DNA of 61,828 bases, filler included, from Chthonomonadaceae bacterium (GTDB lineage Bacteria > Armatimonadota > Chthonomonadetes > Chthonomonadales > Chthonomonadaceae), in the NCBI GenBank assembly GCA_035650735.1. It is 4 parts of 4 records of this genome, joined end to end, with 100 filler letters (N's around TTAATTAATTAA, not from the genome) between each part and the next. Parts side by side here need not be neighbours in the genome. Positions count along the whole stretch, not along the records: positions 1 to 28,414 come from DASRGZ010000114.1; 3 more parts are not named here. One strand, given 5' to 3'. The notes under the pieces were generated by a model. That model was not told the DNA's origin, ran no database searches, and was given only the letters and a program-made list of their open reading frames with translations. The first letter of the stretch is position 1. Each line of letters opens with the position of its first letter. Position numbers and translations under genes: made by a program. Of the stretch, positions 6,054 through 54,876 are shown piece after piece.

Positions 6054-7220
6054 GTGGAAGGAACACGGACAGCCAGACGCCCGGCGATCCGGGTGGCGCA
6101 GGTCATGCGTCCGGCGGCGGGCGGGATGCGCCGTCACCTCTTCACGCTGCTGGCAGGGCTGGATCGCCGCCGGTTTGCCCCTACCCTGTTTGCTCCTGCC
6201 GATTTTCCTGCCGCCGACTGCCCTTCCGATGTTCCCCACATTCCGCTTGCCATCAGCGCACGCACCCGCCCCCTGGCCGACCTCCATGCCATCCGCCAAT
6301 TAGCGCAGCATTTGCGCCAAAACTTTGATATAGTGCATGCACACGGGTTGCGTGGCGCGCTTATCGGCGTGCTGGCTGCGCGCCAGGCCGGGCTTCCTGC
6401 CCTCTTTACCGCCCACAACCTTATTTCCCGTCCGAGTCTGTTGCAGCGGTTTTTTCTGGCGCTCGTAGGCCGTGATGCCGCTGCCGTCATCGCCGTCTCA
6501 GAGGCCGTCGCGGCAATGCTCTGCGCAGCCGGCATTCCCCGCGCCAAAATCGCCGTCATCCCCAACGGCATCGCGCTTGGCCCCTTCGATGTCCAGACGG
6601 ACGCAGAAGCCGTCCGCGCCGCTTTTGGCGTTCCTCCTACCGCGCCCCTCGTGCTTGCCATCGGCAGGCTATCCCCGGAGAAAGGCTTTGATGTTCTCCT
6701 GGAGGCGTTTCGACAGATGCAACTGCGGATGCCCGAAGCGCGTCTGATCCTGGCAGGCAGCGGCCCGGAGGAAGCCGCCTTGTGGAATCAAGCGGTACGT
6801 GGAGGGATAGACCAAACCGGGACGGTAATCTTTGCCGGGCAGCAGGCGGAGGTCGCGCCGCTCTTGCAGGCTGCCGATGTCGTCGCCATTCCCTCCCGGC
6901 AGGAGGGACAGGGCATCGTCGCGCTGGAGGCGATGGCCGCGCGCAGGCCGGTCGTCGCCAGCCGCGTGGGCGGATTGGTGGAAACGGTTATCGAAGGAGA
7001 GACGGGCCTGCTCGTCCCGCCGCAGGATGCCGCCGCCCTGGCAGAGGCGCTTCTGGCGCTGCTCTCCAACCCGGCACAGCGGCAGCAAATGGGAGAAGCA
7101 GGCCGCGTCCGCGTCACGCAGGAATACACGGCCGAGCGCATGGTGCAGCGCATCGAAGCAGTTTATGCAGGGCTAGTTCACCGCACGCGGGAGCCGGAGG
7201 GAACCTCCCTATCGGGCTGA
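6054..7220 (+). CDS. Glycosyltransferase family 4
   Basis: 'IGRLSPEKGFD', 'PSRQEGQGIVALEAMA', 'VVASRVGG'; GTG start chosen after a GAGGAAGG SD. Confidence 0.92.
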   Translation: MEGTRTARRPAIRVAQVMRPAAGGMRRHLFTLLAGLDRRRFAPTLFAPADFPAADCPSDVPHIPLAISARTRPLADLHAIRQLAQHLRQNFDIVHAHGLRGALIGVLAARQAGLPALFTAHNLISRPSLLQRFFLALVGRDAAAVIAVSEAVAAMLCAAGIPRAKIAVIPNGIALGPFDVQTDAEAVRAAFGVPPTAPLVLAIGRLSPEKGFDVLLEAFRQMQLRMPEARLILAGSGPEEAALWNQAVRGGIDQTGTVIFAGQQAEVAPLLQAADVVAIPSRQEGQGIVALEAMAARRPVVASRVGGLVETVIEGETGLLVPPQDAAALAEALLALLSNPAQRQQMGEAGRVRVTQEYTAERMVQRIEAVYAGLVHRTREPEGTSLSG

Positions 7221-9274
7221 AGTAGAATGGCGCGGCCATCCACGTCGGCGGCGAGCAGCATCCCCTGCGACTCGATGCCCCGCATCTTGCGCGGCTGCAA
7301 GTTGGCGACGATGACCACCTGCCGCCCGACAAGCTCCTCCGGCTTGTAGAACTCGGCGATGCCCGCCAGGATCGTGCGGGTGTCGTCTTCGCCGACCTGA
7401 ACCGTCAGGCGCAGCAGCTTGTTGGCGTTGGGAACCGGCTCGGCGGCCAGTATCTCCGCAACGCGCAGCTGCACCTTCATGAAGTCCTCGATGGTGATCG
7501 GCCCCTCAGCGGCAGCGGCGATGCTGCTCGGCGGCACCGGCGTGCCCGGAGCCGGGGCCTGATTTTGGGATGGAACCGTCTCGCTCACGGTCTGTGTCGT
7601 CTCCTTCGCTTCCCCGGGTAGCGGCTCGCCGGTCGGATTGGCGCTGCCCAGCGCGTAGAGCGTCGCCTCGTCCACCGCCGTCTCCTGGATGCGCGGGAAG
7701 AGAGGCTGCGGCGGGCCGACCTTCGTTCCGGCGGGCAGCCCTCCCCAGTCCAGATCCTCCCAGCGCGCCTCGGCGACCGGCTGCGCGAGGCCCAGTTGGG
7801 CGCGAATGGCGTCGGCGGCGACCGGCATAAACGAACTGACCAGGATGGTGACGATGCGCGTCGCCTCCAGGCAGGAATAGAGCACGGTGGCAAGCGCCTC
7901 TCGGCTGGCCTCGTCGCCGGCATTGGCGGCTTTGGCGAGCGTCCAGGGAGCCTTCTCGTCAATGTACTTGTTCATGCGGCCCACGAGCTTCCAGGCCGCC
8001 TCCAGGGCCGCGTTGAGCCGGTACTCGGCCATCGCGCGCGTATATTCCTCCCGCACTTGCAGCGCAAACGCCGCGATCTCGTGGTCGTGATCCCGCGTCT
8101 GGGGCACCACACCGTCGAAGTACCGCACCATCATGTTGACCGTGCGGTTGAGCAGGTTGCCCAGGTCGTTGGCGAGATCGGTGTTGAAGCGGCGCAGGAA
8201 GTTCTCGACGCTGAACTCGGTATCCAGGCCGAAATTCATCTCCCGGCAGAGCAGGTAGCGCTGGGCGTCCGCCGCGAGGTCGAATGACGCGCCGGAGCGG
8301 TCGGCGATCAGCTTCGTGAAGCGCGTCGGATGGGGCAGGCTGGCTCCCGTCTTGCCGCCTTTGGCGCCCTGCACCGTCCACCAACCGTGCGCGTAGACGT
8401 GCTTGGGCAGCGGGATTTCGAGCGCCATGAGCATTGCGGGCCAGAGCGTGGCGTGGAAGCGGACGAATATCTCCTTGCCCATGAAGTGCAGGTCGGCGGG
8501 CCAGTAGAGCGGCCACCTGGGGTCGTCCGGCCAGCCGACGGCGGCCAGGTAGTTGATGAGGGCGTCGAACCAGACGTAGATGGTCTGCTCTTCGTCGCCG
8601 GGCACCGGAATGCCCCAGCCGCGCGAAGGGCGCGCGATGCTCATATCGCGTAACCCCTCGTTGATGAAGCGGATGACCTCGTTGCGGCGGAAATCGGGCT
8701 GGAGGAAATCCGGGTTCGCCTCGATATGGGCCAGCAGGCGCTCGCCGAAGGCCGAGAGCCGGAAGAAGTAGTTCTTCTCCTGCACGCGCACGACCGGCTT
8801 GCCGCTTTCGATGGCGACGCCGTCCTTGACCTCGCTGTCGCGCAGGAACGTCTCGTCGCTGAGGCTGTACCAGCCCTCATAGTTGTCCACGTAGACGTAG
8901 CCGCGATACTGTAAGCGCTTGAAAAACTCCTGCACCGCGCGGATGTGGCGCGGCTCGGTGGTACGGATGAAGTCGTCGTAGGAGACGTGGAGCGCGTGCC
9001 AGCACTCGCGGAAGGCGTCAGCCAGCCCTTCCACGAACTGCATCGTGGGGACGCCCATCTTCTCTGCCGCCGTCTGCACTTTGGACGCGTTCTCATCCGT
9101 GCCGGTCAGCAGCCACGTCCGCCGCCCGTGCAGGCGCTGATAGCGGGCGAGCGCGTCGCAGGCCACCGTCGTCAGCGCCGATCCGACGTGAGGCAGGCCG
9201 TTGACGTAGTAGATGGGCGTGGTAACGTAATAGAAGGTTTTTTCCGGGCGGACGGGCGTCTGGGCGTTGCTCAT
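7178..9274 (-). CDS. metG: Methionine--tRNA ligase with C-terminal tRNA-binding domain
   Basis: 'TTPIYYVNGLPHVGS', 'TGTDEN', 'FIRTTE', 'YVWFDALINY', 'LANDLGNLLNR' and C-terminal 'NLQPRKMRGIESQGMLL'. Confidence 0.97.
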   Translation of the reverse strand: MSNAQTPVRPEKTFYYVTTPIYYVNGLPHVGSALTTVACDALARYQRLHGRRTWLLTGTDENASKVQTAAEKMGVPTMQFVEGLADAFRECWHALHVSYDDFIRTTEPRHIRAVQEFFKRLQYRGYVYVDNYEGWYSLSDETFLRDSEVKDGVAIESGKPVVRVQEKNYFFRLSAFGERLLAHIEANPDFLQPDFRRNEVIRFINEGLRDMSIARPSRGWGIPVPGDEEQTIYVWFDALINYLAAVGWPDDPRWPLYWPADLHFMGKEIFVRFHATLWPAMLMALEIPLPKHVYAHGWWTVQGAKGGKTGASLPHPTRFTKLIADRSGASFDLAADAQRYLLCREMNFGLDTEFSVENFLRRFNTDLANDLGNLLNRTVNMMVRYFDGVVPQTRDHDHEIAAFALQVREEYTRAMAEYRLNAALEAAWKLVGRMNKYIDEKAPWTLAKAANAGDEASREALATVLYSCLEATRIVTILVSSFMPVAADAIRAQLGLAQPVAEARWEDLDWGGLPAGTKVGPPQPLFPRIQETAVDEATLYALGSANPTGEPLPGEAKETTQTVSETVPSQNQAPAPGTPVPPSSIAAAAEGPITIEDFMKVQLRVAEILAAEPVPNANKLLRLTVQVGEDDTRTILAGIAEFYKPEELVGRQVVIVANLQPRKMRGIESQGMLLAADVDGRAILLQPDREVPSGSRVR

Positions 9275-9286
9275 GGATTCGACTGC

Positions 9287-9661
9287 TTAATAGGGACTAT
9301 GAAGTTTCTTCACTCTGTTTTCGGCCTCTTCCAGCGTGGTCGGGTCGGCCTCTTCGGCGGCGGTCAGCTCCGCTTCCGTCGGGGGCGGCGTGTTCAGGAG
9401 GGCGCGCGCCGATTCCACCAGAGAGGCCGGAACGTAGATGCCGCCGCTCCAGCTATCGCCGCCGACGGTCTCGGTCAGCAGGCTCGTCCCGGCGTGGAAA
9501 TTAGGCGTCTGGATCGTGGCCGGAATGCCCGCCGCCTCCAGGGTCGCCCGCACGACCTCCGCCTCCTCCTCGCTGGCTGCGTTATAGACGAGGACGAGTT
9601 GATTGGAACCTGCCGGCGCACCGGCGACAACATCCTGACTGCCTTCCGGTAGATTGCTCAC
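9287..9661 (-). CDS. DUF2007 domain protein
   Basis: 'EAEVVRATLEAAGIPA..IYVP..ARALL' pattern; AGGAG upstream of GTG. Confidence 0.7.
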   Translation of the reverse strand: MSNLPEGSQDVVAGAPAGSNQLVLVYNAASEEEAEVVRATLEAAGIPATIQTPNFHAGTSLLTETVGGDSWSGGIYVPASLVESARALLNTPPPTEAELTAAEEADPTTLEEAENRVKKLHSPY

Positions 9662-9782
9662 GGACACTTCTCCTATTCCGCGTGGTTCACCTCCGCGCCT
9701 GCTGGGAACAGGCCCATGCCGCAGCCAGCGCGCGAGATCATGGCGGTTCCCCATCGCACGTGCGGGGAATAGTCCTATCTCT

Positions 9783-10037
9783 TCATTGGCTCAGCGGCGC
9801 GTTCACAGGCTCTTCCAGGGTGTTCTCCTGCAACAACGCCTGCGCTGCCTCGGCCTGCCGGATAGGAACTAGCACGCGCACGCTGCTGGCATCGTTTTTT
9901 TCGGCGGCGGGGATGCGCGAGGGCTCCACGATGGCGGCAATGCCCGCCGCCTCCAGACGCGCCCGCACAATATCCGCCTCCGCCAGATTGTTTGCATAAA
10001 AGATGGCGACCCTCTCGCCATCCCTCTCAGTGCTCAT
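9783..10037 (-). CDS. DUF2007 domain protein
   Basis: 'EADIVRARLEAAGI..VRVLVP..QAEAAQALL'. Confidence 0.75.
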   Translation of the reverse strand: MSTERDGERVAIFYANNLAEADIVRARLEAAGIAAIVEPSRIPAAEKNDASSVRVLVPIRQAEAAQALLQENTLEEPVNAPLSQ

Positions 10038-10053
10038 GGCCTTACATTGGCTT

Positions 10054-10278
10054 CTAATCTCGACAGCCGCACGCGGCTGGATTCAAGCCTCACCCACCGC
10101 CGCTGGGCAGCGCGCAGCTTTTTTCGTTGGCGGAACGGGCCTGTGCCGTTACCGAAAGCAGGCGTGCCACTCTGCCGGCGCCGCAGGTCGGGCAGGTAAC
10201 ATTATCTAAATTATTGAGGGAGCGCAGGGTCTTAAAGTTCCGGCGACACTCCTTGCAATGAAACTCATAAATGGGCAT
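10054..10278 (-). CDS. FmdB-family zinc-ribbon protein, probable selenoprotein (UGA at 10090-10092)
   Basis: MPIYEFHCKEC..CPTCG motif and AGGAGG SD; after the TGA the frame continues GLNPAACGCRD-TAG, with a hairpin starting 11 nt downstream. Confidence 0.8.
10055..10083 (-). promoter_or_regulatory. Candidate bacterial SECIS element
   Basis: UGA-GGCUUG-AAUC-CAGCCG-CGUG-CGGCUG-UCGA-GAUU: perfect 6-bp upper stem, with the loop G 18 nt after the UGA. Confidence 0.6.
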
Positions 10279-11242
10279 CGTCGTCCTCCTCATCCTCGCC
10301 TTCGGAGGCCAATTCCCCGGCCCGCTCGCGTGCCACTTCGGCGGCGTGCCGACGCATCTCGTCATCCGGAAGAATGGCCTCTGCCGCATCGGCCTGTAAC
10401 TGACCGACGCTGCATCCCCGGCAATCGGAACATTTGCTGGTTTTTTCGATACGCAATTCACTGGCGGGAAATTCCAGTTCCGCCGTACTTTCCAGCAGTT
10501 GCACCAGCGCGGTCTCTTTGAGCAGGTTGAGATCAATGACCTTGCCCTGTCCCTTGGGCGACATTACGATTTCGCCGATCTGGGGCAGCCGCTTTTTGGC
10601 CTCCACGTAGGTTTCATGCTCGTAGCGCAGGCAGCACATCAGCTTGCCGCACACGCCCGAAAATTTGACCGGGTTGAGAAAGAGGCTCTGGTCCTTAGCC
10701 ATCTTCATCGAGATAGGCGCAAATTCGGTCAGAAAAGTGGAACAACACAGCGTCAGCCCACAGGGGCCAATGCCGCCGATCAGTTTGGACTGATCGCGCG
10801 CTCCGACCTGATGCAGTTGCACCTTGCAGCGCAGTTGCCCCGCCACATCGCGCACTAGCTCACGGAAATCCACGCGCGTTTCGGCGGCGAAATAGATAGT
10901 CACCTGGCTGCCGTCGAAGCTATATTCGGCCATCAGCAGCTTCATCGGCAGGCCGTGAAACCGAACCCGCTCCTGACAGATGGTCAGCGCCTGCCTGGCC
11001 TTCTCCCGGTTGCGCCGCTCTTGCAGCAGATCGGCCGCGCCGGCCCGCCGCAGCACGCGCTTCAGAGGCGACTGTATCTCCTCAGGAACGATCTGGCGTG
11101 GCCCGATCTTGACCGTGCCTAACTCCATTCCGCGCGTCGTCTCGACAACAACGCGATCCTCCTCTTGCAGCTCCAGGTCGCCGGGGTCGAACCAATACGA
11201 TTTGGCAACGCGCTTAAAAGCAACACCAACGCACAATGGCAT
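10265..11242 (-). CDS. ricT: PSP1-domain protein RicT/YaaT (stage 0 sporulation family)
   Basis: 'RVDFRELVRD', 'GGIGPCGLTLCC', 'SMKMAKDQSL', 'SGVCGKLMCCLRYE'. Confidence 0.92.
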   Translation of the reverse strand: MPLCVGVAFKRVAKSYWFDPGDLELQEEDRVVVETTRGMELGTVKIGPRQIVPEEIQSPLKRVLRRAGAADLLQERRNREKARQALTICQERVRFHGLPMKLLMAEYSFDGSQVTIYFAAETRVDFRELVRDVAGQLRCKVQLHQVGARDQSKLIGGIGPCGLTLCCSTFLTEFAPISMKMAKDQSLFLNPVKFSGVCGKLMCCLRYEHETYVEAKKRLPQIGEIVMSPKGQGKVIDLNLLKETALVQLLESTAELEFPASELRIEKTSKCSDCRGCSVGQLQADAAEAILPDDEMRRHAAEVARERAGELASEGEDEEDDDAHL

Positions 11243-28414: not shown

Positions 28415-28514
28415 NNNNNNNNNNNNNNNNNNNNNNNNNNNNNNNNNNNNNNNNNNNNTTAATTAATTAANNNNNNNNNNNNNNNNNNNNNNNNNNNNNN
28501 NNNNNNNNNNNNNN
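28415..28514. other. Artificial contig linker
   Basis: N-run + TTAATTAATTAA + N-run, 100 nt, identical at three places. Confidence 0.98.
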
Positions 28515-45017: not shown

Positions 45018-45117
45018 NNNNNNNNNNNNNNNNNNNNNNNNNNNNNNNNNNNNNNNNNNNNTTAATTAATTAANNNNNNNNNNNNNNNNNNNNNNNNNNN
45101 NNNNNNNNNNNNNNNNN
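45018..45117. other. Artificial contig linker
   Basis: N-run + TTAATTAATTAA + N-run. Confidence 0.98.
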
Positions 45118-54776: not shown

Positions 54777-54876
54777 NNNNNNNNNNNNNNNNNNNNNNNN
54801 NNNNNNNNNNNNNNNNNNNNTTAATTAATTAANNNNNNNNNNNNNNNNNNNNNNNNNNNNNNNNNNNNNNNNNNNN
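54777..54876. other. Artificial contig linker
   Basis: N-run + TTAATTAATTAA + N-run. Confidence 0.98.

Follow-up and report, generated by a model that had tools for sequence, protein, structure and literature searches.

A putative selenocysteine in the tail of an FmdB-family zinc-ribbon protein encoded beside ricT in a Chthonomonadaceae bacterium

A small gene of the FmdB/TIGR02605 family in a Chthonomonadaceae bacterium (assembly GCA_035650735.1) raises the question of whether it ends at its first stop codon, a TGA, or is read through to a following TAG as a selenoprotein. It lies on the minus strand at 10278-10054 (10054..10278) of the window, i.e., the whole stretch of 61,828 nucleotides (nt) that was analyzed, which consists of four contigs with N-containing spacers at 28415-28514, 45018-45117 and 54777-54876; the gene is situated in the first contig, and all window features described below are on the same strand. 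A first-pass annotation, from which the strand was absent, had proposed a 74-amino-acid (aa) selenoprotein with a hairpin behind the UGA and a role as partner of RicT. Read on the plus strand, 10054..10278 holds no gene. On the minus strand the frame is indeed open beyond the TGA up to the TAG, and translation with TGA as selenocysteine (Sec, U) gives 74 aa with U63 at 10092-10090, an assignment based on this translation together with profile matches and a homologue alignment. Termination at the TGA would leave a 62-aa product and remove 12 residues, among them U63, C70 and C72. The N-terminal CxxC-x17-CxxC domain (residues 1-45, 10144..10278; C8-x2-C11...C29-x2-C32, four of four cysteines (Cys)) matched TIGR02605 with 56.1 bits (cut-off 31.3) and PF09723 with 52.2 bits (cut-off 34.4), so that the proposed FmdB zinc ribbon was confirmed. 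It is followed by a Gly/Cys tail (10057..10116), for which sequence, alignment and a homologue model gave C55-x7-U63-x6-C70-x-C72 and a prediction of no fixed structure; the spacing is the one originally described.

The inferred Sec codon (10090..10092) is recognized by Cys/TGA pairs in homologues and by the confinement of the TGA form to selA-positive genomes. A homologue search over 61 genomes gave matches in 59, from which 28 homologues were picked by hand and aligned. Column 63 was Cys or TGA in all 28. TGA occurred in eight genomes with six genus labels from three families (G000, which is the genome studied here, G004, G026, G035, G024, G014, G037 and G057), with selA in 8/8 and selB in 7/8, the exception being G024 (77% complete). 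Among 11 genes from genomes of the same order in which selA and selB were not found, none had a TGA upstream of the final Cys of the tail. The closest tail match is a Cys form, C-ALNPEACGCR compared with U-GLNPAACGCR here, and belongs to a genome (G021, 96% complete) in which selA, selB and selD were not found. A Cys aligned to the UGA, which the first-pass annotation had suggested looking for, is thus present in a nearly identical tail. Such natural Cys/Sec pairs allow a direct comparison of the two residues.

Between the gene here and its Cys homologue in G021 only 2/8 tail codons for the same residue agree, and the hairpin was not predicted in G021. Three genomes with TGA, all from a single other genus, share 8/10, 8/10 and 7/10 same-residue tail codons with the gene here, including TGT and CGA, which have a usage of 19% and 6%, respectively, in the long open reading frames (ORFs) of the genome; their seven hairpin codons are identical, with one A-U pair changed to G-U. 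As far as can be judged from sequence comparison, this contrast is real, on small numbers. Conservation of the peptide behind the UGA, likewise a suggested check, was borne out. These data bear on an alternative in which translation ends at the TGA, be it an ordinary stop or a nonsense mutation, the product has 62 aa and the downstream frame is a relic. Chance hairpins and short extensions are common, and 37/400 ordinary TGA stops pass both loose tests described below; against it stand the recurrence of TGA in one and the same Cys column in eight genes of three families, all selA-positive, the full conservation, across genera, of the peptide behind the TGA and of the hairpin codons, and the Cys at this column where Sec machinery was not found. 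We consider an ordinary stop very improbable.

The genome, which is 97.6% complete, contains all genes for Sec synthesis and decoding that were sought: selA (535.7 bits), selB (368.8 bits), selD (374.5 bits, with one in-frame TGA of its own) and selC, the tRNA-Sec (Rfam RF01852, 71.7 bits), approximately 1.5 kb from selD. The first-pass annotation had named a lack of Sec machinery as grounds for abandoning the claim, and this lack was not observed. In relatives, selD was itself a selenoprotein gene in 22 of the 26 found (L004, L239-L263) and had no in-frame TGA in four; the loop of the selD hairpin lies at about +32 to +33 there and has a G-U core. TGA otherwise serves as a normal stop, as 1166 ORFs of at least 350 codons end with it, and the sole tRNA with a TCA anticodon is the tRNA-Sec. 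An alternative code in which TGA stands for Trp or Gly is hard to reconcile with either observation, or with the Cys found as aligned residue. A sequencing or assembly error might be suspected in an assembly of 224 contigs; contigs from three of four public sequencing runs, which are possibly the source of this DNA, cover the gene with no differing letter (the fourth run did not cover it). The chance that error or an alternative code explains the TGA seems negligible.

Folding reproduced the hairpin in every detail that had been claimed. The upper stem (10079-10074/10069-10064) is a 6-bp CAGCCG/CGGCUG helix beginning at +11, the loop CGUG occupies 10073-10070 with a G at 10072, i.e., at +18, and a lower AAUC/GAUU stem (10083-10080/10059-10056) extends it, so that the whole element spans 10056..10083. 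Comparison was made with the criteria for bacterial selenocysteine insertion sequences (bSECIS) given in PMC13188914 (loop 3-9 nt, stem 4-16 bp, G in the first two loop positions, spacing 16-37, minimum free energy <= -7.5), applied in our own implementation and not with bSECISearch. The hairpin agrees with this model (spacing 16, G at loop position 2, 6-bp stem, -13.6 kcal/mol), and the SECIS hairpins in the selD genes of relatives likewise have a G-U loop. Together with the codon comparison, folding and model mark it as SECIS-like.

Several points weigh against decoding as Sec. Stability of the hairpin is modest on its own: z was -2.68 in a 48-nt window (2/200 shuffles) and -1.04, -1.33 and -2.00 in three further folding windows. 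The loose SECIS test was passed by 112/400 ordinary TGA stops of the genome, and the hairpin alone therefore proves little. Two of the eight same-column TGA genes (G024, G057) fail this test, although a G-U-containing hairpin is present, and when the eight post-UGA regions were aligned as DNA, hairpin spacings differed. The three TGA relatives belong to one genus, and their upstream codon identity with the gene here is already 14/27, 15/25 and 18/25. Distant Cys-to-U alignments are easily obtained, as the tails are of low complexity and rich in Cys, and the genomes compared are related and some of them incomplete. Many Sec-positive relatives have Cys at column 63, and hence Sec is not required. 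On balance, the comparative evidence indicates with high confidence that Sec is inserted at the UGA of codon 63. The claimed 74-aa selenoprotein accordingly finds support in the Sec machinery, the Cys aligned to the UGA, the conservation behind it and the SECIS model. The standard bacterial system of SelA, SelB, SelD and tRNA-Sec would decode UGA63 under the direction of the hairpin that closely follows it, giving a protein of 74 aa in which a four-Cys zinc ribbon at the N-terminus is followed by a flexible tail. Of the three conserved tail Cys, the second would be replaced by Sec, at a position where lineages appear to alternate between Cys and Sec. In a RicT tree, in which 14/25 inner branches are unresolved, the Sec form of G024 nests with good support among Cys forms, which implies at least one separate Cys/Sec switch.

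How widely such tails occur was assessed with 198 family genes tabulated from 193 genomes. Removed before the count were two paralogues with acidic tails (L055, L157), three loci in which the pattern gave no match (L054, L198, L214), and ten loci from Armatimonadota; genomes were classed as Sec-positive by a selA or selB match (outside the phylum by selA only). As related genomes are not independent of one another, and selA may be missed in an incomplete one, the counts are not significance tests. Among 126 genes with TGA as their first stop, a SECIS hairpin together with a second stop within 14 codons was found in 38/80 from Sec-positive and 4/46 from Sec-negative genomes, against the background of 37/400 ordinary TGA stops mentioned above. 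A stricter rule, chosen after the data had been seen (stem of at least 6, loop of at most 6 with G-G or G-U), retained 32/80 Sec-positive and 0/46 Sec-negative genes, with a background of 6/400. A short extension behind the TGA, taken alone, did not discriminate, being present at 148/400 ordinary stops. About one quarter of the 126 genes (the 32 of the strict rule) thus look like tail selenoproteins, and gene calls that stop at TGA would therefore remove the most reactive residue in many genomes. Four candidates were rejected and are read as true stops: L164, L206 and L216 from Sec-negative genomes have short extensions and no SECIS, and L229 ends in GFS-TGA with a long extension in a genome where selA was not found.

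Tail ends vary among lineages. Other Armatimonadota families show GGG-U-G[IV]P[RV]R, RPG-U-ALPTRR, C-U-RL[QS]R and TG-U-R[VA]SW, and Cys homologues of such forms exist, e.g., GGG-C-GLPMRR. Outside the phylum, tail Sec with a fitting hairpin was found in selA-positive records of Desulfomonilaceae, Desulfocapsa, Syntrophales, other deltaproteobacteria and Acidobacteria, with the ends S-U-G, S-U-A, G-U-GH, P-U-GK and G-U-RI. In eight of the non-Armatimonadota loci (L205, L212, L221, L225, L226, L232, L233, L234), all from selA-positive genomes and with SECIS-like hairpins, the TGA is followed by one or two residues and a stop. A second Sec site was observed in G005, G027 and G036 (L019:1501-1734, L020, L021), where column 63 is Cys and the TGA stands at the C70 position; these genes end in U-A-R-stop, the hairpin lies in their 3' untranslated region, and selA and selB are present in all three genomes.

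The first-pass annotation had invoked a precedent, namely that Sec-containing FmdB proteins have been described. Such proteins do exist, but the published Sec is in the CxxC of the ribbon and not in the tail, so that the present case is a different one. Two FmdB-family selenoproteins were predicted from Global Ocean Sampling (GOS) reads, both with U in the first CxxC (PMC2398784, in the part available), and the parts of PMC9312934 and of PMC13188914 (Table 1) that could be consulted list the FmdB family with U/CxxU or UxxU only. The GOS proteins share with the protein here the TIGR02605 zinc ribbon, a UGA with a downstream bacterial SECIS, and Cys homologues; they differ in the position of U and in a segment of the G-W-Y-E-T-D type, which is absent here. 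Neither CxxU nor UxxU occurs in the present ribbon, whose C8, C11, C29 and C32 are all Cys. Compared with TIGR02605/PF09723 proteins in general, the domain is alike over residues 1-45, and the tail lies outside both models. Small proteins with GxU, RxU or SGUG motifs are covered by NF041197 (dual CXXC motif small selenoprotein) and TIGR04081 (selenobacteriocin), for which Table 1 of PMC13188914 is the source; neither NF041197 nor TIGR04081, nor any other NCBIfam selenoprotein model, matched the seven tail-Sec proteins searched at E up to 10. As the published FmdB Sec is located in the ribbon and the one here in the tail, tail-Sec FmdB is a subfamily unlisted in the catalogues checked, with a standard recoding mechanism; different Sec positions are counted as separate subfamilies in the 2026 review, as far as its accessible part goes (PMC13188914). 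A literature search, which did not extend to subscription papers, found no paper on tail Sec in the FmdB family, and 'FmdB' did not occur in the main text, as available, of PMC12013277 and PMC13326102, which possibly leaves out the BSepDB family table. The 'FmdB' of PMC11227280 and PMC4807772 is formylmethanofuran dehydrogenase subunit B, a different protein.

What the tail might do is less certain than its decoding. In the 40 ricT-linked Cys forms Cys57 and Cys66 are invariant and Cys73 is conserved in at least 90%, corresponding to C55, U63 and C70, respectively. The model of a Cys homologue had a predicted local distance difference test score (pLDDT) of approximately 90 over residues 1-40 and of about 47-55 beyond residue 40. 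A sequence search of the PDB starting from the homologue alignment gave no match at E 0.01, and a fold search with the homologue model none at E 0.001, the weak rows being generic zinc ribbons (MCM, HypA, RNA polymerase subunit P). Sec is usually found at redox-active or metal-ligating positions, according to the accessible part of PMC13188914, and given that the tail Cys are conserved, the most likely function is that of a flexible thiol/selenol centre carried by the zinc ribbon as a handle, a redox or metal site being somewhat more probable than not. The ribbon would bind zinc and serve as a folded handle, and the tail would either cycle via a Se-S bond with C55, C70 or C72 or ligate a second metal or a Fe-S centre. 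As a whole, Sec decoding combined with a thiol/selenol redox or metal tail is probably the best explanation of the locus. In a family of mostly unknown role, Sec flags the tail cysteines as functional.

Ruc (Rv0991c), presumably also a TIGR02605 member, suggests another function for the same Sec-containing product: oxidation, sensed first by the selenol, would release zinc and convert the protein to a chaperone of the holdase type. The genome's paralogue with an FKGSGWY motif, which we take to mark the Ruc type, fits Ruc better with its Ser/Thr/Lys tail. Ruc has C8, C11, C29 and C32 at the same positions in a four-Cys ribbon that binds one zinc, and needs a disordered tail, a likeness to the protein here (PMC7448276, in the part available, where the name 'FmdB' was not found). 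The tails of Ruc proteins are described as hydrophilic, however, whereas the tail here is rich in Gly and Cys/Sec, and no chaperone gene is among the neighbours scanned (ricT, a DUF2007-like ORF, metG). A Ruc-like function thus appears rather unlikely.

The gene order was the starting point for the suggested role as a partner of RicT. ricT (PSP1/YaaT family; 10265..11242, NF041131 273 bits) overlaps the start of the zinc-ribbon gene by 14 nt, and metG (methionine-tRNA ligase; 7178..9274, NF008900 739.9 bits) lies downstream after two small ORFs, which agrees with the overlap and the position upstream of metG reported in the first-pass annotation. ricT directly precedes the family gene in 56/129 loci with nine family labels of the phylum. 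The adjacency is therefore conserved, and this part of the proposal stands; for the step from gene order to partner the support is partial. Of the ten genomes searched for RicT, four gave no match (G071, 98% complete; G144, 93%; G369, 89%; G183, 91%), all four with Sec-tail genes. In four other Sec-tail genomes (G283, G245, G268, G057) ricT is on another contig. Neither ricT nor metG was within about 3 kb in any non-Armatimonadota locus, and RicT has a CxxCxxC of its own. The tail protein would accordingly not need RicT in every lineage. In family f14 the tail-TGA gene is directly upstream of metG (L082, L085, L087, L089, L095, L102, L104, L105, L108, L109, L111, L115, L148), and RicT was not found in 3/5 f14 genomes searched.

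A more specific idea starts from Bacillus, where the RicT-RicF-RicA complex loads RicT onto RNase Y (PMC10470536, as far as available) and cluster 2 is held by RicT C167, RicF C134 and C146, and RicA C141 on unstructured tails (PMC6751060, likewise in part). By analogy, the Sec tail might substitute for the tails of RicF and RicA, with C55, U63 and C70 or C72 as three ligands of a [4Fe-4S] cluster shared with RicT C167, and so assist the loading of RicT onto RNase Y in a phylum that lacks RicA/RicF. The tails of RicF (YlbF) and RicA (YmcA) are alike in being unstructured and multi-Cys (RicF C134, C138, C144, C146), in a C-x-C end and in their place next to RicT (PMC6751060, accessible part); the zinc-ribbon protein has no Com_YlbF helical domain, so that the likeness is one of analogy only. 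Six RicT cysteines of the Bacillus type (C161, C166, C167, C198, C203, C204), which the RicT encoded here also carries, are invariant in 48/48, RicA/RicF (Com_YlbF, PF06133) had no match in the zinc-ribbon protein or its own genome, RNase Y is present in the genome, and the frequent position behind ricT and the three conserved tail Cys of ricT-linked genes would also fit. The lineages in which Sec-tail genes occur without a detected RicT, or far from ricT and metG, speak against it, and the C-terminal CxxCxxC of RicT itself could supply three ligands, those given by RicA/RicF in Bacillus. ricT and metG form an old cluster, and the adjacency may therefore be inherited order. The substitution is in our view doubtful. 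A complex prediction of RicT with the G021 Cys homologue, two 4Fe-4S and Zn scored 0.00 in two runs, with an uncertain fold of the partner, and speaks neither for nor against the idea. The CxxCxxC (10265-10450) follows the PSP1 region and is shared by most members of family f1 and by those of f2; RicT of other families has different Cys sets or none. The ricT link offers a way to test the working of RicT in the absence of RicA and RicF.

Taken further, FmdB-family zinc ribbons with Gly/Cys tails might form a widespread uncatalogued selenoprotein group in which Sec was gained repeatedly at different tail positions, and in which the ricT-linked member of Armatimonadota replaces the RicA/RicF tails, gives a selenolate ligand to a RicT-shared [4Fe-4S] and ties selenium to RNase Y-dependent RNA processing; that all of this holds jointly is unlikely.

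The two small ORFs between the zinc-ribbon gene and metG are a DUF2007-like ORF (9783..10037, PF09413 27.2 bits) and a second one (9287..9754), for which no family match was found and which shows local similarity to the first; they have a DUF2007-like segment in common, and a match to one of them was present in only two related loci scanned. The genome has three TIGR02605 genes above cut-off. The two paralogues, L264:1498-1788 with the FKGSGWY motif (contig C211 of G000) and L266:1501-1857 with a long acidic tail (contig C130), contain no in-frame TGA. Another organism's contig in run X2 (record 9) differs from the tail region (10055-10117) in 9/63 letters, none of them listed at the TGA.
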